A stretch of 64,000 nucleotides of DNA. Origin: Eledone cirrhosa. Its lineage: Eukaryota. A program made the translations under genes and the position numbers. The notes under the pieces were generated by a model. The model was given only the letters and a program-made list of their open reading frames with translations, was not told where the DNA came from and did no database searches. The stretch lies in contig OZ024741.1 of assembly GCA_964016885.1 (NCBI GenBank), positions 395,436,001-395,500,000 on the forward strand. The letters run 5' to 3'. Positions 4,658-60,533 of this stretch are shown piece after piece (the stretch's first letter is position 1; every line of letters begins with the position of its first letter).

Positions 4658-7600
4658 TCATCATCACCGTTTTACGTCCGTTCTTCCACGCTAGCATGGG
4701 TTAGACGGGTTGTCCTGTTGTGGGCAGTGTCCAGTCGGCTGACCTTGTCTTGCTCATACGGGAACTGATTCTGACTTAATTTCTACAGCTGGATGCCCTT
4801 CCTAACACCAACGTCATTTACAGTGAGTGCTGGGTGCTTTTTCGTGGCGCCTACACGTCCACTTTACAGTGTGGGCTGGGTGCTTTTTTGCCGTGGCACC
4901 TCCACGACCACCTTGCGGTGGGGGGAGTGGGGGCATATTGTTTATATGCTTCAGCATGTACCCATGGGAGGTCGGGTACCCTGTATTACTGCGTGACGCC
5001 AGAAGTCACAGTCGTGTGTCATTGTCTTTGAGAGGTGTAGTTGGGTAAGGTCGGCTTTTATCACCTCGTCCCAAGTCATCTTGGGTCTCCCCACTCCGCG
5101 GTTTCCATCAACTTCTAGTGCTCTGCACCTTTTTATGCAGCTGTCATCCTTCATACGCATCACATGTCCATACCAGCGTAACCGCCTCTCCTGCACGCAG
5201 CATTTGATTCCTCTTATGCTCAGTCTCTCTCTCAATTCATTTATGCTTTGTCGTTCACGTATATTACTGTTACACATCCATCGGAGCATGCAGGCTTCCT
5301 TTCTCTCTAATCTACGTAAGTCTTCCACCTTCAGCGCCCAGGTCTCACTACCATGCAACATCGCTGTTTGGATACACGCATCATACAGTCTGCCTTTCAT
5401 TCTGAGGGAGAAGCCTTTTGCAGCTAGCAGTGGTAGTAGTTCCCTAAACTTCTTCCATCCCGTTCTTACCCTAGTTATTGTACTTTCTGAGCACCCACCT
5501 CCGTTGCTAATTCGGTCACCTAGGTAGCAGAAGCTGTCTACTGTTTCTACAGGGCCCTCCCAGAGATTGGTGGTACTTGTTTCCTGTGGCTGTTTGCTTG
5601 CTGTTTCAACACAGCTGCTGCATGTGAATCCTACATTCTTAATTAAGCTTCCTGAGATCCCGCTACATCTCTTGTGTACCCATTGTTTGCATTTGGGGCA
5701 GAGAATGGAGTTCCTACCTACACCTTTCCTACATACTGAGCAAGGCCATTTCCCTGAGGGGATCTGGGTTCTGTTTTCTCGTCTACTTACAAGGACCTTA
5801 GTCTTTGTCATGTTGACTTTGAGGCCCTTTCTCTCTAGTCCCTGCTTCCAGGTTTGGAATTTATTCTCTAGTTCTACCATAGATTCAGCTATGAGTGCGA
5901 GGTCATCAGCATACAGGAGTTCCCATGGGCATCCGGTCTTAAACTCCTCCGTTATTGCCTGCAGGACTATGATGAACAGGAGAGGGCTAAGAACAGAGCC
6001 CTGGTGGACCCCAACCTGTACGCTAAATTCCTCGCTATACTCATTGCTAATCCTAACTTTGCTGACTGCTCCCCTATACATGGCTTGTACCGCTTTCACA
6101 AGCCATTCATCTATTCCTAGTTTTCTAAGAGCCCACCAGATTACCGCACGTGGAACTCTGTCAAAGGCTTTCTCAAGGTCGACAAATGCCAAGTAGAGTG
6201 GCTTACTTTTAGCTAGGTACTTTTCCTGTTGCCTCACAAGGAAGAGGGCATCAGTGGTGCCTCTCCCTGGTACAAACCCAAATTGCATCTCGTCTATATT
6301 CACCCGGTCCCTAATCAGCTGTGCTATAACTCTTTCTGTTACTTTCATGACCTGGTCCATCAACTTTATACCTCTATAGTTTCCTCTATCTAGTGCATCG
6401 CCTTTACCTTTGTAGCAGTTGACAATGATGCTACTGCACCAATCTTTTGGTATGGCCCCTTCTAGTATTACCTGGTTAACGATACGTGTGGTTATAGTGT
6501 GACCTACAGACCCAGATGCCTTCAGCATCTCGGCAGCTATACCCGATGGACCGGTTGCCTTCCCCATCTTCATATCTCTGATTGCCTTACTTACTACGCT
6601 GCCGCTGACTTGTACTGCTGGTCCCTCTATAGGGTCTACATGGGGTAGGGTCTCTTCTTCCCATGCATTCTCCTCATTTAGTAATCTATCATAATGACTC
6701 TTCCATGCATTTTTCTTCTCAGCACTTGTGAGGGCAAGCTCACCTTTATCATTCCGGATACACTTCTCTCCAATGACATCACAACTATCTCTGACACACT
6801 GCCTCGCAATCTTGAATACCTCCTGTTTCTGGTCCTCACGTTGTAAAACATGCTTGAATTTTCTATCCTCTGCTTCCCTCCTAGCTAAGTATACTTGTCG
6901 CCTAGCTTCCCTCTTGGTCTCTATGTAATGTACCCTGCTCCCCCCGTTCTTCCATTCTTTCCATGCCTGTCTCTTGGCCTTGACTGCTTCATCTACCTTA
7001 TTGTTCCACCACCAAGTCACTCTCCTCCTGCTTGAGGTCTTACTCCAGCCACAAACCTCATCCGTTGCCTCTAGTAAGTTATTTTTTAGGAACTCCCAGT
7101 TCTCTTCTACGTTAAATGTCTCTATATGTTCTTCTTTACTGTCGTAGGCGTTGAGTAAAATATCTTTAAATCTGTTACTGGTTGAGGGGACTTTCAGCTT
7201 CCAGATCTTTCTTCTCCAGGTTGGCCTCTGTTTCCGGGTTCGTCTAGTTCTGACCGTGAGGTCGCTGACAACTAAGCTATGTTGGGATGTACATTCCTCA
7301 CTAGGGAAGGCTTTTGTGTTTACGACCGTCCATCTGTCACGTCCTCTGATGAGGATAAAATCTGATTAGAGTGCTCCCCTGATCTATAGGTGATCAGGTG
7401 GTTGTCAGGTTTTTTAAAGTTTGTGTTACATATCGACATGTCATTGGTGTCGCAGAATTCTAGAAGTCTGAATCCTTCCTCATTCCTTGTGCCAACTCCA
7501 TGGCCTCCATGTACTCTATTGAAGCCATCGCAGTGTCTACCTACGTGTCCATTAAAATCTCCTGCAATGATTAGGAAGTCCTTGTCGTCTGTTAGAGCAG

Positions 7601-9360: not shown

Positions 9361-10998
9361 ATATTTCGTTTCTGAATTTGTTTAGCAAGATTCTTTATCT
9401 GAAATCGTGTGTTGAAACCGATATTGTTATACTTTGGGAGGGTCATGTTGCCAATAAGAAACACACGCACCAGTTGCTTTCACTTCAAATTATTATATAT
9501 TTATAAATTTATAAATTCACAAATCTACAAACTTATAAATTTCTGGTTGGTTGGTTGGTTCCACAACCAGGTAGTTGTTTATATATAGTCATAGTCCTTT
9601 CGTCACAGACACTGTGACCTCTTCAGTGACTGGGGATTCCTTTCTTTGTTTCTGTGCCTTTCCTTTCTTCTATCCTACGCCATTTTGTTTCTGTGTGTGT
9701 GTTGTGTGCTCAGTTTGCGCATGCGCCACATCCGGGTGTCTGTGTGTGTTTGTGTTCATTTATCTATTTGTTTATTTATTTATTGTTGGTTGGTTGTTTG
9801 TTCTATGTGTGTGTGTGTTTTCATTTTGTCCTGTGTGTGTTTTCATTTTGTCCTTAGTTGTAAGTTGTTTGTTCTATGTGTGTGTGTGTTTTCATTTTGT
9901 CCTGTGTGTGTTTTCATTTTGTCCTTAATTGTAAGTTGTGATGTTGCTGTTCCACTCATATTTTCTATTTAATTTTGGTTGTAATTCTTTTTTCTTACTG
10001 CCTCTGTAATTTGCCTAAACATTGCATCTTTTCTGTGTGTGGATTCTATTTTTATTTCTATGTTCTCTAATCTACCCCTGTGTTCTATCTTAGCATGTTG
10101 GTAGAGCACAGATGATTCTTTATTATCTTGAAGGTCTCGCCAGTGTTCATTTATTCGTTCCCCTATACTACGAGCTGTCCCACCTATGTACACTATATTT
10201 TTGTTTCTACATTGTCCTTCAGTACATCTTATGCTATACACTACATTTCTAGTTTTACAGTTAATATGGGGGCTTATTTTACAGGTTATACATTTCTTAT
10301 CTATACATGAGGGTCTTTGGAACGGGTATGTCTTGCTAATAAGTGTTTTTACGGAGGTACCTGGTCTTTCTACTATCTTAATATTGAGTTTATGTTTATT
10401 TAGGGCCCTTCTAAATTTGTAGGCTAGTTCGCCTCTAGGGGTTGTATTGATGAACATTACACTCTGGTATTTATTGCTATCATACCATGAGTTTATTCTA
10501 TTGGCCTTGTTCCTAGTTCTTTCTATTCTATTCCAAAATGTGCTCCTATACAAGGGGTAGGTCCCATTTATGTCATTATTTACCATTTTTTCCCATTTGG
10601 TTCTGGCTCCTTTATACACTCTGATTCTATCCCTCTGATTGTAGCCAGAGAACTGCATACGGTGGATGAAGTGTTGTATGTGTCTCTCTAGTTCTTTGGG
10701 GTTGCACATGCGGGACACATTTCTCATCACCCGTACCAAATCCGCAATCAGTATGTTGATTTTGGTATGGTCCGAAATGGCCGAGTTTCGGTGGATCAGA
10801 TGTTTGGAAGTCATGGGTTTGGCATAATGGGAATGGAGGATTTGTTTTTGGTTGTTAATGGTATCTAACCAGAGCTCTGTGTCTAGTACAGGTAATCGAT
10901 GGTTGGGGTGTCTACTTGGGTAGTCTATAGTAACTCTAATGCTCTGGTGGATGGAGTTTGCTATTTGCTGGATGCTTTCCATTGTGTTTTTCTGGGGC
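9361..10998 (-). mobile_element. Penelope-like element (Neptune-like), 5'-truncated: RT thumb + GIY-YIG endonuclease + pseudo-LTR
   Basis: ORF 9969-~11000: LPVLDTELW, HYAKPM, Cys linker CIDKKCITC...C, NVVYSIRC...YIGGTARSIGERINEH, RQITEA. Homologous to 51868-54311; hammerhead in the 3' region. Confidence 0.9.
9587..9631 (-). ncRNA. Minimal type I hammerhead ribozyme in the PLE 3' region
   Basis: AGUCA-CUGAAGA-g-GUCACAG(ugu)CUGUGAC-GAAA-G(ga)C-UA^-UGACU: perfect stems I and II, minimal stem III, CUA triplet. Confidence 0.85.
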
Positions 10999-11084
10999 AT
11001 TTTCAATCGGCTTATTGCAAATAACAACCCGCAAAATAACACTTCATATAACAGATTAATGCTATAGACATATGAATCGGAATG

Positions 11085-14000
11085 TAACCCGTGAACTTTT
11101 TCCTGGGAAAAATTATTCAAACAGACATGACCTCATTGCCAGGGTGTTCAGACTGAAACTGGCTAAACTCATGGCTTTAATCAAAAAGGTCAGGTATTTG
11201 GAGCTGTAAAATGTGACATGTTCACCGTTGAATGGCAAAAACTAGGGCTGCCACATGCTCACATTTTGATTTGGTTAGCTGATAAAATCAATTCAAATGC
11301 CATAGACAGCTTCATTTCGGCTGAAATCCCTAATCCAGCAACTGACCAGGAATTACATGACATCGTCAAAGCTAACATGATTCATGGTCCGTGTGCGTCG
11401 AGTCCTAATGAGCATCTTCACATATCTGAAAGGGGGGGAGGGGGGTCGTGCAGTAAGGGATAGCCCCAAAAATTTGTTGACTAGACTCAGACTGGTGGCG
11501 ACAGGTAACCCCCTGTACAGGCGGAGACGGCCCGAGAACGGTGGCTTCACCACAACAGTAAAGGGGAGGTCAAGTCGACAATAGATGGGTGGTCCCTTAC
11601 TGCCCGCTTCTCTTGAAGATGTTCAATGCCCACACCAACGTTGAGTTTTGCAACTCCGTCAAGTCGATAAAATACATATGCAAATATGTAAATAAGGGCT
11701 CTGATGCCGCAATGTTCGCATTTCAAGCTGAAAATAGGAGGGACGAGGTCACAGAATACATGGTAGTAGCAATGAAGGTTTTTGGCGCCTATTTGGTTTA
11801 CCCCAATACCAACGTCACCTCGCCATCGTACAGCTTGCGGTACATTTGGAAAATGGGCAAAGGGTTTACTTTATGGACCAAACCGCCTCCAAGTTGGCCG
11901 CCGATCCGAAAGAGATCACTCTGACGGGTTTCTTCAAACTTTGCGAGTTCGATACATTTGCGCAAACAATTGTGTACTCCCAGGTTTCATCCTATTTTAT
12001 ATGGTCAAAAAACACTTGGGTGCGAAGAAAGTCAGGTCAGGCTGCTGAAAGACATCCTGGTGTAAAATTTGACAGCTGTCTTGGAAGGGTTTACACTGTG
12101 CCCCCAAGTCAGCATGAGTGCTTTCATCTCCGCCTTCTTCTGCATGAAGTTGTAGGCCCACAAAGTTTTCAGGACATCAAAACTGTTGATGGAGAAATAT
12201 GTGATACGTACCGGGAAGCCTGCTTTAAGCGTGGTCTTTTGGAAGATGATTTGCAATGGGATTCCACTTTAGCAGAGGGTGCTTTGTTGAAATCACCTAA
12301 AGGTCTACGGGAACTCTTTGCTATTTTGCTTCAAAAGTGTGAATTGGGTGATCCCAAATTTTTATAGGTCAAGTACAGAGACTTCATGTCTGAGAACTTC
12401 CTGCGCTTGGCTCATCTGTAGTATACTTCAGTGGAAGTTGGTTACAGCGACATTATCTACAACAGGGCACTGATTGATATTGAGGCCTTCCTCCTTGACA
12501 TGGGTAGGAGTGACTTGTTGACGTATGCCTTGCCGTCAACCGTCAGAGAGGAAGCTAACACGATGGCCCCGGATTTGTTGCGGGAAACAGCATATGACAT
12601 TGAATCTCTTTCCCAATACTTAGAGGAAAATGAGCCCAAACTTCTGTCGGACCAAAAGTTGGCCTATTTAACTATCATTGACGCGGTTCAAAATCAGACT
12701 GGGGGTATTTACTTTCTTGATGCTCCTGGGGGTACCGGAAAAACTTATGTAATGAAATTGATTCTCGCTAAGATTCTTCAGGAGAAAAAAATTGCGTTGG
12801 CCGTTGCATCGTCCGGGTTCGCTGCTACTTTGCTGCCGGGAGGCAGGACAGCACATTCAACCTTTAAACTTTCCTTGGATTTAGTAAAAACTGAGACACC
12901 AACATGCAATATCAGCAAGAGTTCACTCGAAGCTCTGGTTCTCAAAAAATGTTGCCTCATTGTTTGGGATGAGTGCACAATGGCACATAAGGGTGCACTT
13001 GAGGCATTGGACAGGACCCTGAAAGACATTAGGAATTCTACGGTCCTATGGGTGGCGTAACCCTTCTGCTATCAGTGGATTTTCAGCAAACGCTGCCTGT
13101 CATCCCCAAAGAGACAAGAGCTGATGAAGTGCGTGCCTGTCTTAAGTCGTCCATGTTGTGGCTCCAGGTGAAGAGTTTGTACCTGAGCACAAATATGCGT
13201 GCTCATTTGCATGGTGACAACATGTCTGCAGCATTCGCTCAGAATATTTTAGCACTTGGTGAGGGCAAGGTCCCTGCGGATGACAAGGGTGGCATAGCAA
13301 TCGACTCCCTGTGCAACATTGTGAGCAGCCCTTCTGACCTTTGGGAAGCAGTTTTTCCTAATGTCTCATCTAACTTTAAAAACCTCGATTGGCTCAGCGA
13401 AAGAGCCATCTTGCTCCGAAAAATACCATGGTTAATTTTATTAACGAGCAGCTGATTTAGAAAATTCCCGGTAAAGAGCACATCTTCAAATCTATCAACC
13501 GGACGTCAGACCCCGACAATATCGTTAATTATCCGGTTGAGTTATTAAATTCCCTTAAGCCCCCAGGGCTCCCACCTCACATTCTTAAGCTTAGGGTTGG
13601 CTGTCCCATTATGCTAATAAGGAACTTGCGTCCACCAAAGCAGTGCAATGGTACTCGCATGGTCGTCAAGTCACTGACGCCCCACTTGATTGAGGCTACT
13701 ATTGTAACGGGGTGCGGGAGAAGGGAAAATGTTTTCATTCCAAGTATGAACCTTTTCCCCTCAGCGTCAGATATCCCGTTCGATTTCCGGCGATCCCAAT
13801 TTCCAGTGAGACCATGTTTTGCCATGTCCATTAACAAGTCACAAGGGCAAACATTGTCGGTGGCAGGCATCCATTTGGGGGAGCCATGCTTCTCCCATGG
13901 CCAACTTTATGTTGCCTGTTCCCGCGTAGGGAGCAGGAATAGACTTTTTGCTTAAACTCCTCAAGGGATGACACGCAATATCGTCTACAAAGAGGTGCTA

Positions 14001-15452: not shown

Positions 15453-17823
15453 TTTACTAGAGGCGACGGATGAGGTCTGTGGCTGGAGTAAGCCCTCAAG
15501 CAGGAGGAGAGTGACTTGGTGGTGGAACAATAAGGTAGATGAAGCAGTTAAGGCCAAGAAACAGGCATGGAAAGAATGGAAGAACGGGGGAGCAGGGTAC
15601 ATTACATAGAGACCAAGAGGGAAGCTAGGCGACAAGTATACTTAGCTAGGAGGGAAGCAGAGGATAGAAAATTCAAGCATGTTTTGCAACGTGAGGACCA
15701 GAAACAGGAGGTGTTCAAGATTGCGAGGCAGTGTGTCAGAGATAGTTGTGATGTCATTGGAGAGAAGTGTATCCGGAATGATAAAGGTGAGCTTGCCCTC
15801 ACAAGTGCTGAGAAGAAAGATGCATGGAAGAGTCATTATGATAGATTACTAAATGAGGAGAATGCATGGGAAGAAGAGACCCTACCCAAAGTAGACCCTA
15901 TAGAGGGGCCAGCAGTACAAGTCAGCAGCAACGTAGTAAGTAAGGCAATCAAAGATATGAAGATGGGGAAGGCAACCGGTCCATCGGGTATAGCTGCCGA
16001 GATGCTGAAGGCATCTGGGTCTGTAGGTCACACTATAACCACACGTATTGTTAACCAGGTAATACTAGAAGGTGTCATACCAAAAGATTGGTCTAGAGGA
16101 AACTATAGAGGTATAAAGTTGATGGACCAGGTCATGAAAGTAACAGAAAGAGTTATAGCACAGTTGATTAGGGACCGGGTGAAAATAGACGAGATGCAAT
16201 TTGGGTTTGTACCAGGAAGAGGCACCACTGATGCCCTCTTCCTTGTGAGGCAGTTACAGGAAAAGTACCTAGCTAAAAGTAAGCCACTCTACTTGGCATT
16301 TGTCGACCTTGAGAAAGCCTTTGACAGAGTTCCACGTGCTGTAATCTGGTGGGCTCTTATAAAACTAGGAGTAGATGAATGGCTTGTGAAAGCGGTACAA
16401 GCCATGTATAGGGGAGCAGTCAGCAAAGTTAGGATTAGCAATGAGTATAGCGAGGAATTTAGCGTACAGGTTGGGGTCCACCAGGGCTCTGTTCTTAGCC
16501 CCCTCCTGTTCATCATAGTCCTGCAGGCAATAACGGAGGAGTTTAAGAGCGGATGCCCATGGGAACTCCTGTATGCTGATGACCTCGCACTCATAGCTGA
16601 ATCTATGGTAGAACTAGAGAATAAATTCCAAACTTGGAAGCAGGGACTAGAAAGAAAGGGTCTCAAAGTCAACATGACAAAGACGAAGGTCCTTGTAAGT
16701 AGATGAGAAAACAGAACCCAGATCCCCTCAGGGAAATGGCCTTGCTCAGTATGTAGGAAAGGTGTAGGTAGGAACTCCATTCTCTGCCCCAAATGCAAAC
16801 AATGGGTACACAAGAGATGTAGTGGGATCTCAGGAAGTTTAATTAAGAATGTAGGCTTCACATGCAGCAGCTGTGCTGGGACAGCAAGCAACAAACAGCC
16901 ACAGGAAACAAGTACCACCAATCTCTGGGAGGGCTCTGTAGAAACAGTAGACAGCTTCTGCTACCTAGGTGACCGAATTAGCAGCGGAGGTGGGTGTTCA
17001 GAAAGTACAATAACTAGGGTAAGAACGAGATGGAAGAAGTTTAGGGAACTACTACCACTGCTAGCTGCAAAAGGCTTCTCCCTCAGAATAAAAGGCAGAC
17101 TGTATGATGCGTGTATCCGAACAGCAATGTTGGATCGTAGTGAGACCTGGGCGCTGGAAGACTTACGTAGATTAGAGAGAAACGAAGCCTGCATGCTCCG
17201 ATGGATGTGTAACAGTAATATACGTGAACGACAAAGCATAAATGAATTGAGAGAGAGACTGAGCATAAGAGGAATCAAATGCTGTGTGCAGGAGAGGCGG
17301 TTGCGCTGATATGGACATGTGATGCGTATGAAGGATGACAGCTGCATAAAAAGGTGCAGAGCACTAGAAGTCGATGGAAACCGCGGAGTGGGGAGACCCA
17401 AGATGACCTGGGATGAGGTGATAAAAGCCGACCTTACCCAATTACACCTCTCAAAGGCAATGACACACGACCGTGACCTCTGGCGTCACGCAGTAATACA
17501 GAGTACCCAGCCTCCCATGGGTACAAGCTGAAGCATATAGACAATATGCACCCACACCCCCCACCGAAAGGTGATCGTGGAGGTGCCACGGCAAAAAAGC
17601 ACCCAGCTCACACTGTAAAGTGGACGTGTAGGCGCCACGAAATGCTCCCAGCACTCACTGTAAATGAGGTTGGTGTTAGGAAGGTCATCCAGCTGTAGAA
17701 ATCAAGCCAAATCAGTTCCTGTATGAGCAAGGCATGGTCAGCCGACCAGACACTGCCCACAACAAGACAACCCGTCTAACCCATGCTAGCGTGGAAGAAC
17801 GGACGTAAAACGGTGATGATGAT
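15447..17823 (+). mobile_element. RTE LINE family A, 5'-truncated and pseudogenised
   Basis: RT and PHD motifs as in other A copies; internal deletion near 16092, in-frame stops, (GAT)n tail, (TA)n on both sides. Confidence 0.95.
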
Positions 17824-19210: not shown

Positions 19211-22200
19211 TCATCATCATCATCATCATCACCGTTTTACGTCCGTTCTTCCACGCTAGCATGGGTTAGACGGGTTGTCCTGTTGTGGGCAGTGTCCAGT
19301 CGGCTGACCTTGTCTTGCTCATACGGGAACTGATTCTGACCTAATTTCTACAGCTGGATGCCCTTCCTAACACCAACGTCATTTACAGTGAGTGCTGGGT
19401 GCTTTTTCGTGGCGCCTACACGTCCACTTTACAGTGTGGGCTGGGTGCTTTTTTGCCGTGGCACCTCCACGACCACCTTGCGGTGGGGGGAGTGGGGGCA
19501 TATTGTTTATATGCTTCAGCATGTACCCATGGGAAGTCGGGTACCCTGTATTACTGTGTGACGCCAGAAGTCACGGTCGTGTGTCATTGTCTTTGAGAGG
19601 TGTAGTTGGGTAAGGTCGGCTTTTATCACCTCGTCCCAAGTCATCTTGGGTCTCCCCACTCCGCGGTTTCCATCAACTTCTAGTGCTCTGCACCTTTTTA
19701 TGCAGCTGTCATCCTTCATACGCATCACATGTCCATACCAGCGTAACCGCCTCTCCTGCACGCAGCATTTGATTCCTCTTATGCTCAGTCTCTCTCTCAA
19801 TTCCTTTATGCTTTGTCGTTCACGTATATTACTGTTACACATCCATCGGAGCATGCAGGCTTCGTTTCTCTCTAATCTACGTAAGTCTTCCACCTTCAGC
19901 GCCCAGGTCTCACTACCATGCAAAATCGCTGTTCGGATACACGCATCATACAGTCTGCCTTTCATTCTGAGGGAGAAGCCTTTTGCAGCTAGCAGTGGTA
20001 GTAGTTCCCTAAACTTCTTCCATCCCGTTCTTACCCTAGTTATTGTACTTTCTGAGCACCCACCTCCGTTGCTAATTCGGTCACCTAGGTAGCAGAAGCT
20101 GTCTACTGTTTCTACAGGGCCCTCCCAGAGATTGGTGGTACTTGTTTCCTGTGGCTGTTTGCTTGCTGTTTCAGCACAGCTGCTGCATGTGAATCCTACA
20201 TTCTTAATTAAGCTTCCTGAGATCCCGCTACATCTCTTGTGTACCCATTGTTTGCATTTGGGGCAGAGAATGGAGTTCCTACCTACACCTTTCCTACATA
20301 CTGAGCAAGGCCATTTCCCTGAGGGGATCTGGGTTCTGTTTTCTCGTCTACTTATAAGGACCTTAGTCTTTGTCATGTTGACTTTGAGGCCCTTTCTCTC
20401 TAGTCCCTGCTTCCAGGTTTGGAATTTATTCTCTAGTTCTACCATAGATTCAGCTATGAGTGCGAGGTCATCAGCATACAGGATTTCCCATGGGCATCTG
20501 GTCTTAAACTCCTCCGTTATTGCCTGCAGGACTATGATGAACAGGAGAGGGCTAAGAACAGAGCACTGGTGGACCCCAACCTGTACGCTAAATTCCTCGC
20601 TATACTCATTGTTAATCCTAACTTTGCTGACTGCTCCTCTATACATGGCTTGTACCGCTTTCACAAGCCATTCATCTACTCCTAGTTTTCTAAGAGCCCA
20701 CCAGATTACTGCACGTGGAACTCTGTCAAAGGCTTTCTCAAGGTCGACAAATGCCAAGTAGAGTGGCTTACTTTTAGCTAGGTACTTTTCCTGTAATTGC
20801 CTCACAAGGAAGAGGGCATCAGTGGTGCCTTTCCCTGGTACAAACCCAAATTGCATCTCGTCTATATTCACCCGGTCCCTAATCAGCTGTGCTATAACTC
20901 TTTCTGTTACTTTCATGACCTGGTCCATCAACTTTATACCTCTATAGTTTCCTCTATCTAGTGCATCACCTTTACCTTTGTAGCAGTTGACAATGATGCT
21001 ACTGCACCAATCTTTTGGTATGGCCCCCTCTAGTATTACCTGGTTAACGATACGTGTGGTTATAGTGTGACCTACAGATCCAGATGCCTTCAGCATCTCA
21101 GCAGCTATACCCGATGGACCGGTTGCCTTCCCTATCTTCATATCTCTGATTGACTTACTTACTACGCTGCCGCTGACTTGTACTGCTGGTCCCTCTATAG
21201 GGTCTACGTGGGGTAGGGTCTCTTCTTCCCATGCATTCTCCTCATTTAGTAATCTATCATAATGACTCTTCCATGCATCTTTCTTCTCAGCACTTGTGAG
21301 GGCAAGCTCACCTTTATCATTCCGGATACACTTCTCTCCAATGACATCACAACTATCTCTGACACACTGCCTCGCAATCTTGAATACCTCCTGTTTCTGG
21401 TCCTCACGTTGTAAAAACATGCTTGAATTTTCTATCCTCTGCTTCCCTCCTAGCTAAGTATACTTGTTGCCTAGCTTCCCTCTTGGTCTCTATGTAATGT
21501 ACCCTGCTCCCCCCGTTCTTCCATTCTTTCCATGCCTGTCTCTTGGCCTTGACTGCTTCATCTACCTTATTGTTCCACCACCAAGTCACTCTCCTCCTGC
21601 TTGAGGTCTTACTCCAGCCACAAACCTCATCCGTCGCCTCTAGTAAGTTATTTTTTAGGAACTCCCAGTTCTCTTCTACGTTAAATGTCTGTATCTGTTC
21701 TTCTTTACTGTCGTAGGCGTTGAGTAAAATATCTTTAAATCTGTTACTGGTTGAGGGGACTTTCAGCTTCCAGATCTTTCTTCTCCAGGTTGGCCTCTGT
21801 TTCAGGGCTCGTCTAGTTCTGACCGTGAGGTCGCTGACAACTAAGCTATGTTGGGATGTACATTCCTCACTAGGGAAGGCTTTTGTGTTTACGACCGTCC
21901 ATCTGTCACGTCCTCTGATGAGGATAAAATCTAACTGACTAGAGTGCTCCCCTGATCTATAGGTGATCAGGTGGTTGTTGGGTTTTTTAAAGTTTGTGTT
22001 ACATATCGACATGTCATTGGTGTCGCAGAATTCTAGAAGTCTGAATCCTTCCTCATTCCTTGTGCCAACTCCATGGCCTCCATGTACTCTATTGAAGCCG
22101 TCGCAGTGTCTACCTACGTGTCCGTTAAAATCTCCTGCAATGATTAGGAAGTCCTTGTCGTCTGTTAGAGCAGTAGTGTGTATTAGGGACTCGTAAAACC

Positions 22201-22631
22201 TATCCTTAAGTTCGTCTGGCAGCCCCGATTGGGGTGCGTAAGCTGATATTATTGTGGTAATTGTCTTATTCAGGACTAGTCTGAGTTTAATGATTCTTGC
22301 ATTTACCCTGTACACTGAGATTACTTCATCTACCCACTTGTCAGCTAATAGTATACCTACACCACCCATCCTATCGTCATTTCCCACCCAGAAAAATTTG
22401 TAGCACTGGCTTTTTCCTACAAGGACTCTAGCAGACCCTCCTCTCCATCTAGTCTCTTGCACACAGCATACATCAACTTCCTTTCGCTCTAGCATTTCTA
22501 CGATTTCTCCTGCTCTTCCTTTCATTGAGCCTACATTGATGGTACCAACTCGGAGTTTTGGGCATTTGTCGACACTCGTAGGGGAGGGTCTCTGGGTTGG
22601 CGCTTCACGTGGGTGCTTGGTAGCTCGCAGA
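19211..22631 (-). mobile_element. RTE LINE family A, longest copy (APE-RT-PHD) with one frameshift
   Basis: ORFs 21404-22525 (APE: VQETRW, AYAPQ, GDFNGH, LDFIL) and 19516-21420 (RT+PHD) are separated by one extra A near 21413-21417 relative to the other copies. Confidence 0.96.
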
Positions 22632-22839
22632 TAATATATATATATATAATATATCTATCTATATATATATATATATATATACGTGTGTGTGTGTGTGTGT
22701 GCTGCTGAACAGAACCCGTTCAACCCATGCAAGCATGGAAAAATGGACATGATGATGACGCACATAAACATACATATATACATACATGGATATATTATAT
22801 GCATCAACAGAGTTTAAAATTATAAAAGAAACTACTTAC

Positions 22840-23790: not shown

Positions 23791-23818
23791 TGTGTGTGTG
23801 TATATATGTATATATATA

Positions 23819-23850
<32 letters not shown>

Positions 23851-23852
<2 letters not shown>

Positions 23853-24530
23853 GAAAAAGTGAGTCCTTCATCAGTGACCCTCCAACCGTCCTCGGCATTT
23901 CATCGCTTTAAGGGCCATATGCCTCAGGTTGGTGCGAACAACGGCTAAAAAAAGTCGTTGGGACACGTAAATAAAGGGGGACGCTAGAGTAACAACGAAA
24001 GGGTTTAAGCAACGGAAAGTGAGTAGAAATAGACAAGTCCCAGATCTCTATGAATATAAACTCTGTGAAATCGTGAACAAGAGACGAAAGACCATCGAAC
24101 CTGGTAGAAATGTGAGCGAGGAAAGAATTTCGCCCAAGTTTGACGGGGGGGAAAAAAGAGAGAGAGAGAGAAAGAAAAAGGAGAGAAGAAGAAGAAGAAG
24201 AGGATAAGGTGGTCTGGTCTACGAATTCGGTAAACGCAAGTTTTGTGAAGTCGCAGACGAAAGAGAGAGAGAAAAAAATTCCATACCAGCTCGGTTAAGA
24301 CTGCGCGAGAAAAGAATTACACACAGGTCAAACTTGAAGGAGGAGGAGGAAAGAGGAGGAGGAGAGGTAGTGACAGAGAATGAGTGAGAGAAAGTTGAGG
24401 AGAGGGTAACAGAGAGGGAGACTGCTAGAAGTGGTAAAGATACAAGGAACGAAACAGACAGGCAGCATGGAAAAGTAATATGTGTAAATATGATGATAAT
24501 AATGGAGCTGCGGCGTTGCAAATGGGATAC

Positions 24531-24534
<4 letters not shown>
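23851..24534 (-). mobile_element. Non-coding ~680-bp element, one unit long, circularly permuted relative to 60220-60533 (retrozyme-like)
   Basis: Its two ends (...CTTTTTCATAT and ATATGTATCCCATTTGCAACG...) are contiguous in the 60.5-kb copy; (TA)n on both sides; no recognisable ORF. Confidence 0.7.
23856..23932 (-). ncRNA. Candidate non-circularly permuted hammerhead ribozyme, copy 1
   Basis: GGCAU-A^-UGGCCCU-u-AAAGCGAU-GAA-AUGCC-linker-AGGGUCA-CUGAUGA-A(ggac)UCACUUU. Confidence 0.55.
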
Positions 24535-24584
<50 letters not shown>

Positions 24585-25402: not shown

Positions 25403-26690
25403 ACTATATATTTTCAACAGTAATACTGTACTATATATTTTCAACAGTAATACTATACTATATATTTTCAACAGTAATACTATACCATATATTTTCAATA
25501 GTAATACTATATTATACTATATATTTTCAACAGAAATACTGTACTATATATTTTCAACAGTAATACTATACTATATATTTTCAACAGTAATACTGTACTA
25601 TATATTTTCAACATTAATACTATACTATATATTTTCAACAGTAATACTATACTATATATTTTCAACAGTAATACTATACCATATATTTTCAACAGTAATA
25701 CTATATTATACTATATATTTTCAACAGAAATACTGTACTATATATTTTCAACAGTAATACTATACTATATATTTTCAACAGTAATACTGTACTATATATT
25801 TTCAACATTAATACTATACTATATATTTTCAACAGTAATACTATACTATATATTTTCAACAGTAATACTATACCATATATTTTCAACAGTAATACTATAT
25901 TATACTATATATTTTCAACAGAAATACTGTACTATATATTTTCAACAGTAATACTATACTATATATTTTCAACAGTAATACTGTACTATATATTTTCAAC
26001 ATTAATACTATACTATATATTTTCAACAGTAATACTATACTATATATTTTCAACAGTAATACTATACTATATATTTTCAACAGAAATACTGTACTATATA
26101 TTTACAACAGTAATACTGTACTATATATTTTCAACAGTAATACTATACTATATATTTTCAACAGTAATACTGTACTATACTATATATTTTCAACAGTAAT
26201 ACTATACTATATATTTTCAACAGAAATACTGTACTATATATTTACAACAGTAATACTGTACTATATATTTTCAACAGTAATACTATTCTATATATTTTCA
26301 ACAGTAATACTGTACTATATATTTACAACAGTAATACTATACTATATATTTTCAACAGTAATACTGTACTATATATTTTCAACAGTAATACTATACTATA
26401 TATTTTCAACAGTAATACTGTACTATATATTTTCAACAGTAATACTATACTATATATTTTCAACAATAATACTATACTATATATTTTCAACAGTAATACT
26501 GTACTATATATTTACAACAGAAATACTATACTATATATTTTCAACAATAATACTATACTATATATTTTCAACAGTAATACTGTACTATATATTTACAACA
26601 GAAATACTATACTATATATTTTCAACAATAATACTATACTATATATTTTCAACAGTAATACTATATGTATTCAACAGTCATACTATACTA
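25403..26690. repeat. 27-bp minisatellite (TATATATTTTCAACAGTAATACTRTAC)n with a 194-bp higher-order repeat
   Basis: About 47 units. Near-identical ORFs at 25507, 25701 and 25895 are spaced 194 bp (7x27+5). A Helitron-like end GCGAAGCTAGGTACGTCAGCTA follows at about 26720-26741. Confidence 0.95.
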
Positions 26691-40860: not shown

Positions 40861-43800
40861 CATCATCATCATCATCATCAACGTTTAACGTCCGTGTTCC
40901 ACGCTTGCATGGGTTTGGACGGGGGTAGTCCCACTTGAGGCAAGAGTGATTGTCTTGCTCGCATAGGACTGTCTGGCAGGTTTTCTACAGTTGGATGCCC
41001 TTCCTAACACCAACCACATTTACAGTGTGGGTCTGGGAGGTTTTTACCGTGTTGCCTACACGGCCACATTACAGCGTGGACTGTGTGTTTTTTTGTCGTG
41101 ACACCTACACGATCTCATTTGTTTCGGCCTCGATGGCGCGGCACCAACATAACTTTACATAGAACGGGGTGGTGTGGATCGGGTGGGGGTGGGGGTGGTG
41201 GGACGGGGTGTATTTTGTTAGAGATGCCTACTGGCTGGAGTAGGTTTTACTATATATTTAGGTAAGGCGGGTCTTCTCTGTTACTGAGTACCGCCAAAGG
41301 TCTCGGTCCAGTGACATTGTCTTGGAGAGGTGTAAGTGTGTGATGTCGGAGTTTATCAGCTCGTCCCAGGTTTTTCTAGGTCTGCCTATTCCGTGACTAC
41401 CGTCTATCTTTATTGCCCTGCACTTTGTTATACAGCTATCGACTTTCATGCGCATCACGTGTCCATACCAACGTAGCCTTCTCTCGAGTAAACAACATCT
41501 GATCCCTCTTATCTCTAATTTTTTCCTTAGTTCGTTTATGCTTTGCCGTTCACGTATATTACTGTTACACATCCAGCGGAGCATGCAAGCTTCGTTCCTC
41601 TCTAGTCTGCGTATATCCTCTGCACACAATGCCCAGGTCTCACTGCCATGCAGCATTGCTGTTCGTATGCAGGCATCGTACAACCTGCCTTTCATTTTTA
41701 GTGAGAACCCTTTAGCAGCTAATAGTGGTATAAGCTCTCTGAACTTTTTCCAACCAGTTCTGACTCTAGCTACAGTACTTTCAGAGCACCCTCCCCCACT
41801 GCTGATTTTATCGCCCAGGTAACGGAAGCTGTCCACTATTTCTATAGAACCCTCTGCGCAATTGAAAGAGCTAGTAGTTTGTGGGCACTTGCTGCTACTT
41901 ATTGCACCAGAGCACCGGCCACATGTAAAATCTATGTTCTTAGTTAGCTTACCTGTGATCCCACTACATCTTTTATGCACCCATACTTTGCATTTAGGAC
42001 ATAAAATGGAGTTTCTACCTACGCCTTTCCTACACACCGAGCACGACCATTTCCCAGAAGGGACCGCCGCCTTGTTTTCTTTCCTACAAACTAGTACTTT
42101 GGTCTTAGCCAGGTTAATTTTAAGTCCTTTTGACTCTAGGCCGTGCTTCCATGTTTGGAATTTCTTCTCTAGCTCGGCCATTGATTCCGCTATGAGTGTC
42201 AGGTCGTCTGCGTATAGGAGTTCCCATGGGCAGCCTGTCTTGAACTCCTCTGTTATAGCCTGAAGGGCAATAATAAATAGTAGTGGACTGAGAACAGAGC
42301 CCTGATGGACGCCGACTTTTACGCTAAACTCTTCACTATATTCGTTGTTAATTCTAACCTTGCTGACTGTTTCTTTATACATGGCTTGTATAGCCCTCAC
42401 AAGCCATTCGTCAACGCCTAGTTTTCTAAGAGCCCACCAGATAATGGAGCGGGGGACTCTGTCGAAGGCTTTCTCCAAGTCGACAAAAGCTAAGTAGAGG
42501 GGTTTACCTTTAGCTAGGTACTTCTCTTGTAGTTGTCGTACTATGAAAAGAGCGTCTGTGGTACTTTTGCCTGACACAAACCCGAACTGCATTTCATCTA
42601 GGTCAATTCTCTCTCTGATTAGTTGCGCTATTACTCTTTCCGTGACCTTCATGACCTGGTCGATTAATTTAATGCCTCTATAGTTACTCCTATCTAGGGC
42701 GTCTCCTTTACCCTTATAACAGTTAACGATGATGCTGCTATGCCAGTCCTTCGGAACAACCCCGTTCTGTACGACTTGGTTAACTATGCGGGTGACCATG
42801 GTGTGTCCCACCGTGCCAGATGCCTTCAGCATCTCAGCAACTATTTCCGAAGGCCCAGCCGCCTTACCAGTCTTCATATCCTTGATTGCCTTACTTATTA
42901 TACTCCCCTCGACTAACACTGCTGGTCCCTCTATTGGGTCGATATGGGGGAGACTGCCTTTCTCCCAATTATTCTCCTCATTTAGAAGCCTTTCATAGTG
43001 ACACTTCCAAGCTACCTTCTTATCAGCGTCGGTGATGGCAAGTGTGCCATCGTCGTTTAGTACACACTTCTCCCCGACAATATCACGGTTTTCCTTGACG
43101 CATTGCCTAGCAATCCTGAACACCTCACGTTTTTGGTCATCGCGTTGTAGAACATGCTTGAACTTTCTTTCCTCAGCTTCCCTTCTTGCTAAGTACACTT
43201 GTCTCCTAGCTTCCCTCCTGGCCACTTGATAGTCCTCTCTACTTCCCCCATCCCGCCATACTTTCCAAGCCTGCTTTTTGGCCTTAATTGACCCCTCCAC
43301 CTTACTGTTCCACCACCATGTTACTCTCCTCCTGCCTACAGGCCTGCTCCAGCCACAGACCTCGTCTGTCGCCAACAGCAGGTTTGCTTTCAGAAATTCC
43401 CACTCTCCCTCTATATTGTCCGACTCTAAATGTTCTTCCTTACTGTCGAAAGCATCAAGTAATATGCTTTGAAATTTATTCCTGGCTGTGGGGTCCTTTA
43501 GCTTCCATATTTTCCTCCTGAGGATAGTCCTCTTCTGTTGTCGAGTACGTCTCGTCCTGACTATGAGGTCGCTAATTATCAGTCTATGTTGGGAGGTGCA
43601 TTCTTCATGGGGGAGGGATTTAGTGTTAACAACAGACACTCTGTCACGTCTTCTGGTAAGGATATAATCTACCTGGCTTGTGTGTTCCCCGGATCTATAG
43701 GTGATCAGGTGATTGTCACGTTTTTTGAAGTTAGTGTTACAGATAGTTAGGTTATTTGCATCACAGAATTCCAGGATTCTGGAGCCTTCCTCATTTCTAG

Positions 43801-44127
43801 TACCAAACCCATAGCCTCCATGGATTTCGTCGTAGCCGTCACAATGTTGTCCAACGTGACCATTTAGGTCGCCTGCGATAATTATATAGTCACTGTCGGA
43901 TATTTGGGAGGTAGTTAGCATCAGTGTCTCATAGAATCTGTCTTTTATAGTGCCGGGCAGTCCGGATTGGAGTGCGTACGCAGATATTACTGTCACCGTA
44001 GTTCTATTGAGGACAAGTCGTATTTTAATTATTCTGTCGTTCACTCTATTTACGTCTATTATCTTATCTGTCCACTTTTCTGCTACCATGATTCCTACTC
44101 CACCCAGCCCATCGTCGTTTCCCACCC
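40861..44127 (-). mobile_element. RTE LINE family B, 5'-truncated, ORF uninterrupted
   Basis: ORF 41258-~44127 with APE C-half, RT and PHD; ~390-bp 3' UTR; (GAT)n tail; the same (TA)nCACA array on both sides. Confidence 0.96.
41258..44127 (-). CDS. RTE family B APE-RT-PHD polyprotein (N-terminally truncated; the ORF-track start is microsatellite)
   Basis: GDLNGH, VDYIL, SQHRL, FVDLEKAFDRV, LYADDL, CSVC...CPKC...HKRC...CGRC. Confidence 0.9.
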
Positions 44128-44186
44128 ATATATGTGTATATATATATATATATATATACACATATATATATATATATATATATACA

Positions 44187-45612
44187 CATCATCATCATCA
44201 TCAACGTTTAACGTCCGTGTTCCACGCTTGCATGGGTTTGGACGGGGGTAGTCCCACTTGAGGCAAGAGTGATTGTCTTGCTCGCATAGGACTGTCTGGC
44301 GGGTTTTCTACAGCTGGATGCCCTTCCTAACACCAACCACATTTACAGTGTGGGGCTGGGAGGTTTTTACCGTGTTGCCTACACGGCCACATTACAGCGT
44401 GGACTGTGTGTTTTTTGTCGTGACACCTACACGATCTCATTTGTTCCGGCCTGGATGTTGTGGCACCAACATAACTTTACATTGAAAGGGGTGGTTTGGA
44501 TGGGGTGGGGGTGGTGGGACGGGGGTGTGTTTTGTTAGAGATGCCTACTGACTGTAGTAGGTTTTACTTTGTATTTAGGTAAGGCGGGTCTTCTCTATTA
44601 CTGAGTACCGCCAAAGGTCTCGGTCCAGTGACATTGTCTTGGAGAGGTGTAAGCATGTGAGGTCGGAATTTATCATGTCGTCCCAGGTTTTTCTGGGTCT
44701 GCCTACTCCGTGGCTACCGTCTATCTTTATTGACCTGCACTTTGTTATACAGCTGTCGTCTTTCATGCGCATCACGTGACCATACCAACGTAGCCTTCTC
44801 TCGAGTAAACAACATCTGATCCCTCTTATTTCTAATTTTTTCATTAGTTCGTTTATGCTTAGCCGTTCACGTATATTACTATTACACATCCAGCGGAGCA
44901 TGCAAGCTTCGTTCCTCTCTAGTCTTCGTATATCCTCTACACACAATGCCCAGGTCTCACTGCCATGCAACATTGCTGTTCGTATGCAGGCATCATACAA
45001 CCTGCCTTTCATTTTTAGGGAGAACCCTTTAGCGGCTAATAGTGGTATAAGCTCTCTGAACTTTTTCCATCCAGTTCTGACTCTAGCTACTGTACTTTCG
45101 GAGCACCCTCCCCCACTGCTGATTTTGTCACCCAGGTAACGGAAGCTGTCCACTATTTCTATAGAACCCTCTGTGCAATTGAAAGAGCTAGTATTTTGTG
45201 AGCACTTGCTGCTACTTATTGCACCAGAGCACCGGCCACATGTAAAATCTATGTTCTTAGTTAGCTTACCTGTGATCCCACTACATCTTTTATGGACCCA
45301 TACTTTGCATTTGGGATATAAAATGGAGTTTCTACCTACGCCTTTCCTACACACTGAGCATGGCCATTTCCCGGAAGGGACCGCCGCCTTATTTTCTTTC
45401 CTACAAACTAGAACTTTAGTCTTAGCCAGGTTAATTTTAAGGCCTTTTGATTCTAGGCCGTGCTTCCATGTTTGGAATTTCTTCTCTAGCTCGGTCATTG
45501 ATTCAGCTATGAGCGTTAGATCATCTGCGTATAGGAGTTCCCATGGGCAGCCGGTCTTGAACTCCTCTGTTATAGCCTGAAGGGCAATAATAAATAGTAG
45601 GGGGCTAAGAAC
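44187..45612 (-). mobile_element. RTE LINE family B, 5'-truncated
   Basis: ORF 44575-45612 from LSPLLF through the PHD to EKTRLT; tail at 44187. Confidence 0.95.
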
Positions 45613-46278: not shown

Positions 46279-46883
46279 GGTCACCAGTTGGTGCTACTGG
46301 TAACATGTATCCCAGTACAACCTGTCTCATGGTCGGGTCGTTGGCGACTAAACTGGCAACCCCACCAAGGTTTCTTGGCGAGGAGGGTGACTTTGGACAT
46401 CCTGCAGGACTAAAAATAAAACCTGTCAAAGGGCAAATGGGCTCTTAAGAGTCAATGACGATCCAAAATCACCGGGAGAGATGACCCCTTAGCCTTTGTC
46501 AAGGCAGAATTCTAGGAGAAGGAAAACTCTGATATAACACCTGCAACCCTGATGGTATCCAATGATGTTGACTTGTTCTTCTTTTTGGTAAATATCATCT
46601 TGGTTAAGAGAGTGGGACTGGCTTTATGCAGTGCCTTTGCTCACTATAAAAGCTTCACAGCACAGGCATTGCTTTATATCTGGAGATCTCTCTGCACTTG
46701 TCGTCACATGGTACCATGGGCCCAGCTCTATGTGTCAATAATTGTTACAGGTGTAGTGTTTGTACCAGAGTTTTCAAGTCGCTGGCTGGACTAAAAAGTC
46801 ACACTTGTTTAGCGCATCGGTAGGGGTTCTCCTACATGGATATAAAGTAGTGGCCGTACTCCAAAACGAGTTGGCAGCCACCA
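46279..46883 (+). mobile_element. Bipartite non-autonomous RTE derivative (5' UTR + 3' end of a family D relative)
   Basis: 5' part aligns with 4402-3990 (minus); 3' part encodes CSVCTRVFKSLAGLKSH and ends GAGTTGGCAGCCACCATATA like position 443-460; second copy at 59803-60221. Confidence 0.85.
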
Positions 46884-50161: not shown

Positions 50162-50293
50162 CATACATACATATATATATAATACATACATACATATATA
50201 TATAATACATACATACATATATATATATAATACATACATACATATATATATATAATACATACATACATATATATATATAATACATACATACAT

Positions 50294-51300
50294 CTCTATG
50301 CTGACGATCTGGCTCTTATGGCAGAATCAGTAGAGGAGCTAGAGAATAAATTCCGGCTATGGAAACAGCAGTTGGAAGCAAGAGGACTGAGAGTAAATCT
50401 AGCTAAGACAAAAGTGTTGATGAGTAGAAAAGAGGACAAAACCCTGATTCCGTCAGGGAAATGGCCATGTTCGATATGCAGAAAAGGAACTGGCATAAAT
50501 TCTATAAAATGCACACAATGTAGGTCCTGGGTACACAAGAGATGTAGCGGGATAGCAGGCAAACTAACAGGTAGGGAGAAATATGTATGCAGTAGATGTA
50601 CAGGGAAATTAGACAGTAGAAGTCGCACTGATAGACACATTTTTCAAATGCGAGAGGGCGCTATAGAAGTGGTGGATAGCTTCCGGTACCTAGGAGATCA
50701 GATTAGCATGGGAGGAGGGTGTTCCGAGGCCATAGTATCTAGAATAAGGACGGGTTGGAAGAAGTTTAGGGAGCTGCTTCCTCTGTTGACGAAGAAGGGT
50801 TTCTCCCTGCGTACGAAAGGCCGGTTGTATGATGCCTGTGTGAGGAGCGCGATGCTGCATGGTAGTGAGACATGGGCAGCTACCGCAGAAGATATGCGAC
50901 GGCTGGAGAGAAATGAGGCAAGCATGCTCCGTTGGATGTGCAGTGTAAATGTGCGTGAACGACCCAGCATAAATGTGTTGAGAGAGAAACTGTGTCTGAG
51001 AGGGATAGAATGTAGTGTACGGGAGAGGAGACTGAGGTGGTATGGACATGTGATGCGCATGGAGGATGACCGATGGGTGAAGAAGTGCCAGGAAATGCCA
51101 GTTGAAGGAAGACGTAGTAGAGGTAGACCACGAAAAACATGGGCAGAGGTGGTGAGAACAGACCTCAGATCATTGAAGCTCACGGTGGAGATGACGAGGG
51201 ACCGTGACGAGTGGAGAGATGCTGTGCTGAATAAGACCCGTCCCACCCTTGCAAGCAGGGAAAAGCGGACGTAAAATGATGATGATGATGATGATGATGA
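50294..51300 (+). mobile_element. RTE LINE family C, 5'-truncated, with PHD finger and essentially no 3' UTR
   Basis: LYADDL...CSIC...CTQC...HKRC...CSRC...FRYLG; the ORF stops at 51274 immediately before (GAT)n. Confidence 0.93.
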
Positions 51301-59743: not shown

Positions 59744-59802
59744 TATATATATACATATATATAGATACACATATATATATACATATATATATATACATAT
59801 AC

Positions 59803-60221
59803 ATGGTGGCTGCCAACTCGTTTTGGAGTACGGCCACTACTTTATATCCATGTAGGAGAACCCCTACCGATGCGCTGAACGAGTGTGACTTTTTAGTCCA
59901 GCCAGCGATTTGAAAACTCTGGTACAAACTTGTGACAATTATTGACACATAGTGCTGGGCCCATGGTATCATGTGACAAAACGTGCAGAGAGATCTCCAG
60001 ATATAAAGCAATGCCTGTGCCGTGAAGCTTTTATAGTGAGCAAAGGCACTGCACAAAGCCAGTCCCACTCTCTTAACCAAGATGATATTTACCAAAAAGA
60101 AGAACAAGTCAACATCATTGGATACCATCAGGTATTCTCCTAGAATACCTGATATTCTCCTAGAATTCTGCCCTGACAAAGGCTAAGGGGTCATCTCTCC
60201 CGGTGATTTTGGCTGGCCATT
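59803..60221 (-). mobile_element. Second, 5'-truncated copy of the bipartite non-autonomous RTE
   Basis: Reverse complement of about 46455-46883 with small indels. Confidence 0.88.
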
Positions 60222-60531
60222 CCTTGCTCACATTTCAACCAGGTTTGATGGTCTTTATTCTCTCGTTCACGATTTCACCGAGTTTATATTCATAGAAATC
60301 TGGGACTTGTCTCTTTCTTCTCACTTTCTGTTGCTTAAACCATTTTGTTTGTTCACCCTAACGTCCTCTTTATTCACGTGTCCCAACGACTTTTTTTAGC
60401 CGTTGTTCGCACCAACCTGAGGTATATGGCCCTTAAAGCGATGAAATGCCTAGGATGGTTGGAGGGCCACTGATGAAGGACTTACTTTTTCATATGTAAC
60501 CCATTTGCAACGCCGCAGCTCCATTATTATC

Positions 60532-60533
<2 letters not shown>
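60220..60533 (+). mobile_element. Partial copy of the ~680-bp non-coding element, spanning the unit junction
   Basis: 60220-60495 matches 24125-23851 (minus); 60492-60533 matches 24534-24494 (minus). Confidence 0.8.
60412..60488 (+). ncRNA. Candidate non-circularly permuted hammerhead ribozyme, copy 2
   Basis: Stem III 60421-25/60446-50; H17=A60426; stem I 60427-33/60463-69; GAA 60443-45; CUGAUGA 60470-76; stem II 60435-42/60477+60482-88. Confidence 0.55.

Follow-up and report, generated by a model that had tools for sequence, protein, structure and literature searches.

How a non-coding unit of 682 nt came to be copied into (AT)n tracts of the Eledone cirrhosa genome, and whether a circular RNA served as its template, is the question raised by two related sequences within one window, the stretch of 64,000 nt analysed here (contig OZ024741.1 of assembly GCA_964016885.1, positions 395,436,001 to 395,500,000). 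A preliminary description of this window had taken the two for circularly permuted, unit-length copies of a candidate retrozyme, reverse-transcribed from a circular or concatemeric RNA at nicked (TA)n sites by an enzyme of a Penelope-like element (PLE) or of the RTE type.

Two related copies of a tandem repeat

The copies and the tracts that receive the first of them are as follows.

23851..24532, minus strand: complete 682-nt unit of subfamily A; its ends share ATAT with the flanking (AT)n and its limits hold to within 2-4 nt
23801..23852, no strand: (TA)n target at the 3' end of the unit
24527..24581, no strand: (AT)n target at the 5' end of the unit
60220..60533, plus strand: copy of subfamily B that lacks its 5' part, carries the same motif and stops at the tail site in (AT)n

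Read on the minus strand from 24534 to 23849, the first copy starts with ATATGTATCCC and ends with CTTTTTCATAT, and both ends run into (AT)n through a shared ATAT, as originally described. The absence of a recognisable protein domain is likewise upheld, as no Pfam family is found in any of the three long frames tested. In the second copy the two ends of the unit are indeed joined, at a plus-strand junction at 60492-60496 with the end of the element at 60533, and likeness to the unit extends to both sides (91% over 280 nt for the 3' part and 94% over 50 nt for the unit start). This copy is not, however, of unit length, as had been supposed: it measures 314 nt, lacks the 5' part of the unit, belongs to a sister subfamily, is 91% identical to the window unit and has its 5' end fused to an unrelated repeat. 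Nor is unit length the general state of the element, exact units being a minority of copies; among the 30 best loci, several of which overlap, only the window copy and one other (L013) amount to exactly one unit, with no further unit, partial or full, attached. The apparent permutation is the ordinary junction between head-to-tail units, and the window copy is exceptional in having its two ends at one and the same ATAT.

Other repeats share the window with the element. One of them (59802-60213 and 46454-46882) is non-coding, abundant and at least 600 nt long, with one of its ends fixed at (AT)n; it is matched in about 20 of the fetched loci, and no hammerhead was seen in it. Others are a 27-nt minisatellite of 47 copies at 25403-26690, and broken plus-strand frames at 11562-13955 that we take, from their motifs, to encode a Helitron-like replicase/helicase.

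An abundant family with tandem arrays

The assembly searched comprises 3.0 Gb in 1,796 contigs. A pattern for the core of the motif described below matches 9,943 places in the genome, against 2 for a reversed control, and a second core pattern matches 1,003, against 20 in its control, for a combined count of about 11,000 matches against 22. A DNA similarity search with the unit itself returned 2,741 candidates, of which 40 were scored. Tandem units recovered from the loci measure 519-806 nt, and the 63 distinct ones fall into 11 clusters, several without BLAST similarity to one another; all have a GC content of about 44% and a motif strand that is 65-72% pyrimidine. Because the median identity of the window copy to its best relatives is 97-98%, subfamily A can be regarded as young.

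A search for tandem arrays, suggested at the outset, revealed head-to-tail units with as many as nine cores in one array. Of 77 arms, 64 carry one core, 11 carry two, one carries three and one carries nine, so that the element displays the head-to-tail, non-coding tandems by which non-LTR retrozymes are recognised. Two contig runs of unrecorded kind cover a dimer in 29 of 30 and 22 of 30 bins; as X1 may be the assembly's own sample, this coverage is not taken as support for expression.

A hammerhead in the order cleavage site, GAAA, CUGAUGA

The rearranged hammerhead that had been noted in the element is confirmed as a predicted motif, with all of the hammerhead core bases and an NUH triplet present in three blocks in the order S-G-C (cleavage site, GAAA, CUGAUGA). 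Its parts in the window copy, together with the upstream strands discussed further on, are listed here from 5' to 3' along the minus strand.

23961..23964, minus strand: extra strand 1 (GTCC), predicted partner, in replacement stem IIa, of the GGAC that follows CUGAUGA
23939..23960, minus strand: hairpin between the extra strands, present in local folds
23934..23937, minus strand: extra strand 2 (TCGC), predicted partner, in helix IIb, of the GCGA that precedes GAAA
23924..23932, minus strand: 5' strand of P0 (the extension of stem III) and GA of the kink-turn-like loop, present in the local MFE fold
23911..23923, minus strand: block S, with stem III strand, AUA triplet and stem I strand; predicted cut at 23918/23917
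23889..23906, minus strand: block G, with GCGA-U-GAAA (GAAA at 23901-23898), stem III strand, 3-nt bulge and GA
23863..23887, minus strand: 3' strand of P0, then block C, with stem I strand, CUGAUGA (23874-23868), A and GGAC

In the truncated copy the predicted cut falls after 60426, with GAAA at 60443-60446 and CUGAUGA at 60470-60476. No Rfam hammerhead is matched at the gathering score, matches by E-value being microsatellite noise only, and the type I hammerhead typical of retrozymes is not what the unit carries, its order being S-G-C with no GAAA after CUGAUGA.

Pairing in stems I and III can be judged without hand-picking: at least 8 of 10 pairing points are reached by 36 of 71 motif clusters and by 0.3% of shuffles, the remaining clusters including inversion junctions, truncated or decayed copies and chance matches. 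Covariation was assessed in 23 hand-picked intact rows, which are related by descent and retain one misaligned row (L153), and in which GAAA and CUGANGA are imposed by the search patterns. Within this alignment stem III is 95.7%, stem I 96.2% and P0 74.4% paired, with two-sided changes in 9 of the 11 pairs of stems I and III and in all 6 pairs of P0 (15 of 17 in total), and the covariation of these helices is 0.584, compared with 0.275 when shuffled (0 of 500 reaching the observed value) and at most 0.154 when slid. Although the rows are related, the distinct Watson-Crick pair types alone require stems I and III to have undergone two-sided change at least 11 times. The triplet of the intact rows stays NUH (AUA, AUC, GUU, GUC or GUA), and pair 15.2-16.2 covaries between A-U and G-C. 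The circular fold has a z of -2.9 against 25 shuffles, a modest value that is not counted as evidence.

Between stem III and P0 lies a 3-nt bulge. Judged by eye, 9 of the first 14 rows accompany it with GA/GA and 3 with UA/GA, whereas rows of the L094 type have plain pairs. Bulge and GA/GA or UA/GA together resemble the kink-turn consensus; Rfam returned no kink-turn match. A kink-like loop at this place would allow stem III to bend back in the direction of stem I. No helix joining the free sides of stems I and II was seen by eye in the alignment, the strand in question pairing in P0 instead.

A proposed substitute for stem II

Direct pairing of block G with block C, the classical stem II, was considered in two registers and set aside, these being only 65% and 45% paired. 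Classical stem II appears instead to be replaced by two helices that involve an extra upstream strand. Over 25 rows, stem IIa is paired in 82% of cells with two-sided change in 2 of 4 pairs, the hairpin between the strands in 79% with two-sided change in 5 of 7, and helix IIb in 86% with two-sided change in 2 of 4. Covariation of the extra strands is 0.369, against 0.206 when shuffled (0 of 500) and at most 0.176 when slid, and an alignment-free count over 31 motifs places both helices above all 300 shuffles and swaps, the first by a small margin. For stem IIa, subfamily A offers a second candidate partner 18 nt upstream.

The published SGC descriptor fits none of 29 motifs and a relaxed version 8 of 29, the window copy fitting neither. 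Because the direct stem II fails and the descriptor fits no motif, any activity would hinge on a putative architecture, and it is with this architecture that the S-G-C fold is predicted to self-cleave.

In several families (L113, L095, L106) the bases after CUGAUGA can also form, by eye, a small GGA...UCC hairpin like stem II of a type I hammerhead, possibly an alternative fold or a relic.

Insertion ends and target-primed polarity

Mapping of the copy ends, which the preliminary description had proposed as a check, gives different answers for the two ends, the 3' ends being nearly fixed, against permutation, and the 5' ends variable. The sample for the 3' ends consists of 61 loci that follow genome order among the first 100 core-pattern matches, two duplicated places and the diverged families being excluded. 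Measured from the G of GAAA, 36 of the 72 termini fall 45-60 nt downstream, 35 fall at 86-115 nt and one falls between, which places two ATAT 3'-end sites about 65 and about 110 nt behind the predicted cut. ATAT words occur in the unit at +49, +92, +102, -19 and -157, the last two being rarely used; that at -19, at the cut, forms the end in 2 of the 39 S blocks listed, among which such cases are over-represented. The sample requires a core and is thus biased against upstream sites, with long copies frequent enough to reveal equal use. Because 71 of 72 termini use two sites, despite ATAT at -157 and -19, the copies do not represent a circle opened at random, and the free circular permutation first envisaged has to be given up.

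The 5' ends, by comparison, are spread along the unit as variable 5' truncations. No clear pile-up of these ends is found at the predicted cut, the (AT)n junctions in the first 100 of 417 and of 4,050 overlapping matches being scattered over AT/TA microhomologies. Arms that stop at the predicted cut, at an ATAT word, number 5 of 77, and in one inverted insertion (L090) both arms stop there. Fixed 3' sites combined with variable 5' ends bear out a target-primed polarity, and the characterisation of the element as non-autonomous, hammerhead-bearing, tandem and (TA)n-targeted stands.

Inverted insertions help to distinguish the two kinds of enzyme that had been put forward. In 14 of 15 such insertions the two arms use different sites, the short one for one arm and the long one for the other (P=0.0005), leaving a one-sided tail of about 45 nt. 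Partial tandems, an inverted truncated copy and a tail of 30-40 bp, often at one end only, are described for PLE insertions in the available text of PMC8557442, and the features expected of a PLE-mobilised element, namely 5' truncation, partial tandems, an inverted arm and a one-sided 3' tail, are all present here. Because the tail is confined to one arm in 14 of 15 inverted insertions, a PLE enzyme is favoured and an RTE enzyme disfavoured.

Taken together, the unit is probably a monomer within a young, non-coding tandem repeat whose copying into (AT)n is likely due to a PLE reverse transcriptase-endonuclease acting in trans, and it bears an S-G-C hammerhead predicted to self-cleave. Read-through transcripts of head-to-tail copies would be cut once per unit, with stem II supplied by the extra upstream strand and a kink-turn-like bend bringing stem III back to stem I. 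The enzyme would nick (AT)n, the target end would anneal to AUAU just behind the core, and reverse transcription would pass back through the cut site, sometimes many times, on a template that could be a re-ligated circle or an uncut multimer.

Circle or multimer as the template

Sequence upstream of the predicted cut is kept, with no scar, in 63 of 77 arms. Because priming 65-110 nt behind the cut is followed by copies that extend past it, the template must have been a circle closed by ligation or a multimer left uncut, unless the enzyme made precise template jumps, and the proposed circular or concatemeric template is in this sense supported. DNA alone cannot separate a circle from an uncut multimer; we lean slightly towards a multimer still uncut and give a re-ligated circle somewhat less than an even chance.

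A classical retrozyme cycle, with efficient self-cleavage, ligation to an abundant circular RNA of about 680 nt and rolling reverse transcription, is somewhat less likely than not. It would account for the scarless arms, for the 13 of 77 arms with at least two cores and for the infrequent use of other ATAT sites by 3' ends (2 of 39 at the cut), and circles have been shown for the retrozymes of coral, mussel and axolotl in the portion of PMC7229834 available; known retrozymes are stated to derive from PLEs in the accessible part of 10.64898/2026.07.22.740005. Such a cycle is at odds with the use of two 3'-end sites rather than the whole circle. The homogeneity of arrays also agrees with it, adjacent units of subfamily A differing by 1.7 substitutions per 146 nt (n=27) and units of different loci by 3.8 (n=299), where a few values are inflated by flanks and the comparison does not separate circle from multimer; in subfamilies B and C the gap is smaller, with few pairs. 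Equal homogeneity, however, would come from copying of linear multimers or from later duplication, the likeness of adjacent units fitting circle, multimer and template jumps alike, and non-autonomous Chlamys PLEs, of a group without canonical hammerheads as far as the available text of PMC8557442 goes, form head-to-tail multimers as well.

An unlikely alternative to the self-cleaving unit is that the fold acts as a structured binding or priming signal for the PLE enzyme, with cleavage in subfamily A lost or very slow. The fold has the same position relative to the 3' end as in the Naiad PLEs, the pair beside GAAA is weak in the A-F families, and copy ends bear no clear footprint of the cut, all of which would suit a binding signal; the NUH triplet and the covarying pair 15.2-16.2 are nonetheless kept, which a mere binding site need not do.

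The partner enzyme and a link to Naiad

A further check suggested at the outset, for an attached reverse transcriptase ORF, found no RT or endonuclease ORF contiguous with the motif in 260 + 22 loci, the matches within 1.5 kb being scattered neighbours. Fixed ends in all copies, or consistent attachment of the unit to a PLE ORF, had been named as observations that would speak against the original proposal; the former is nearly the case for the 3' ends, and the latter is not found.

ORFs of both PLE and RTE type are abundant in the window and the loci. Those that we take, from their motifs, for RTE-like LINE ORFs lie at 4951-7365, 15552-17309, 19516-22654, 41258-44188, 50231-51274 and elsewhere, one of these copies having an open frame of 976 aa. 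Two broken PLE ORFs in the window have a GIY-YIG-like C-terminal end and are followed by a type I hammerhead, one at 9972-11132 on the minus strand (hammerhead at 9626) and the other at 52715-53602 on the plus strand (hammerhead at 54063); neither has a Pfam match at E 0.01. The type I pattern matches 8,960 places in the genome, and a minimal type I family (L211-L240, about 9,000 matches) shares CUGAUGAAGGAC with the element and ends about 90 nt further on in (AT)n/(AC)n. It is improbable that an autonomous PLE has the unit as its pseudo-LTR, or that RTE-type LINEs move it: the abundance of both kinds of ORF is outweighed by the lack, in the loci examined, of any contiguous with the motif, by the ordinary type I hammerheads found, where readable, behind PLE ORFs with a C-terminal endonuclease, and by a one-sided tail of the sort described for PLEs in the consulted part of PMC8557442.

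For the trans-acting PLE of the preferred account, Naiad provides a link. The ends of Naiad_Obim and Naiad_Ovul show, by eye, the extra strands, hairpin, P0, GA/GA, site, GAAA and CUGAUGA in the same order, with the AUA-type site read as GUA and the fold about 70 nt before the terminal GATAT. Both elements target (TA)n, and one is marked HHR_half_core by the authors, in the available text of PMC8557442, which describes cephalopod Naiads as long-inactive remnants. Three pattern searches for the Naiad ORF, two of them with exact degenerate patterns, gave 3, 0 and 0 matches in the assembly, none of them a Naiad ORF, a result that does not in itself show absence, and none was found in 1.2 Mb of loci. 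The motif thus likely derives from the 3' end of Naiad PLEs, whereas its present-day enzyme may be a different PLE that targets (TA)n.

Old copies of the motif at L262:1500-1560 (minus strand) and L264 are nearer to the published Naiad end than are the tandem families, with no ORF seen upstream of either.

Relation to known systems

With the non-LTR animal retrozymes, as described in the available parts of PMC7229834 and 10.64898/2026.07.22.740005, the element has in common non-coding tandems from dimers to multimers, one hammerhead per unit, a GC content of about 44% and a link to PLEs. Those retrozymes carry a type I hammerhead in units of about 220-400 nt, whereas the element carries the S-G-C order in units of 519-806 nt, targets (AT)n and exists mostly as truncated single-core copies; their circles are demonstrated, whereas a circle of the element is hypothetical. 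The type-SGC hammerheads, HRIMA-1 and its variants (Eckert et al. 2023, PMC10085705, text available in part), show the same S-G-C order, a short linker after stem I and an extra base after CUGAUGA. They have a direct stem II and a helix linking stems I and II, whereas the element appears to use an extra upstream strand for stem II and to extend stem III over a kink-like loop. In the portion of that paper available, type-SGC hammerheads come from metatranscriptomes, and no genome of a known organism yielded one.

Naiad PLEs (Craig et al. 2021, PMC8557442, text available in part) share the (TA)n targets, partial tandems, inverted 5'-truncated arms and one-sided tail. They encode EN-RT over 3.4-4.4 kb, whereas the element has no ORF, the likeness being one of fold, as judged by eye; Naiads are reported there without canonical hammerheads, some being marked HHR_core or HHR_half_core. 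Non-autonomous Chlamys such as MRC1 are, by description, multicopy head-to-tail PLE partners like the element; they belong to green algae, and the same available text describes no hammerhead for them. Beyond the papers cited, no report of this motif in animals or Naiads was found in literature other than subscription journals and bioRxiv supplements; the words "ribozyme" and "retrozyme" are absent from a 2026 octopus repeat annotation (PMC13282606), and a 2026 ribozyme paper merely cites Eckert et al. (PMC13725137). The element works like a PLE-dependent retrozyme, yet it fails the type I test of retrozymes and the stem II test of type SGC.

Implications

Non-circularly permuted hammerheads have been published almost only from environmental RNA, and here one occurs at about 11,000 places in an animal genome. 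The S-G-C motif spans several unrelated repeat families, and the wiring of its stem II escapes standard descriptors. A bolder reading, which we offer tentatively and hold to be rather less than an even bet, is that the element belongs to a second class of animal retrozymes, composed of RNAs of 520-800 nt that descend from Naiads and would circularise by means of an active four-strand hammerhead outside the six published permutations, and that this hammerhead would be the missing Naiad ribozyme across invertebrates. If the motif cuts, it would explain the seeming absence of hammerheads from Naiad elements, and surveys of retrozymes built on type I models would undercount. It would also provide a young and abundant substrate for asking what role the hammerhead plays in Penelope-like elements, and whether PLE tandems and tails arise from circular templates.
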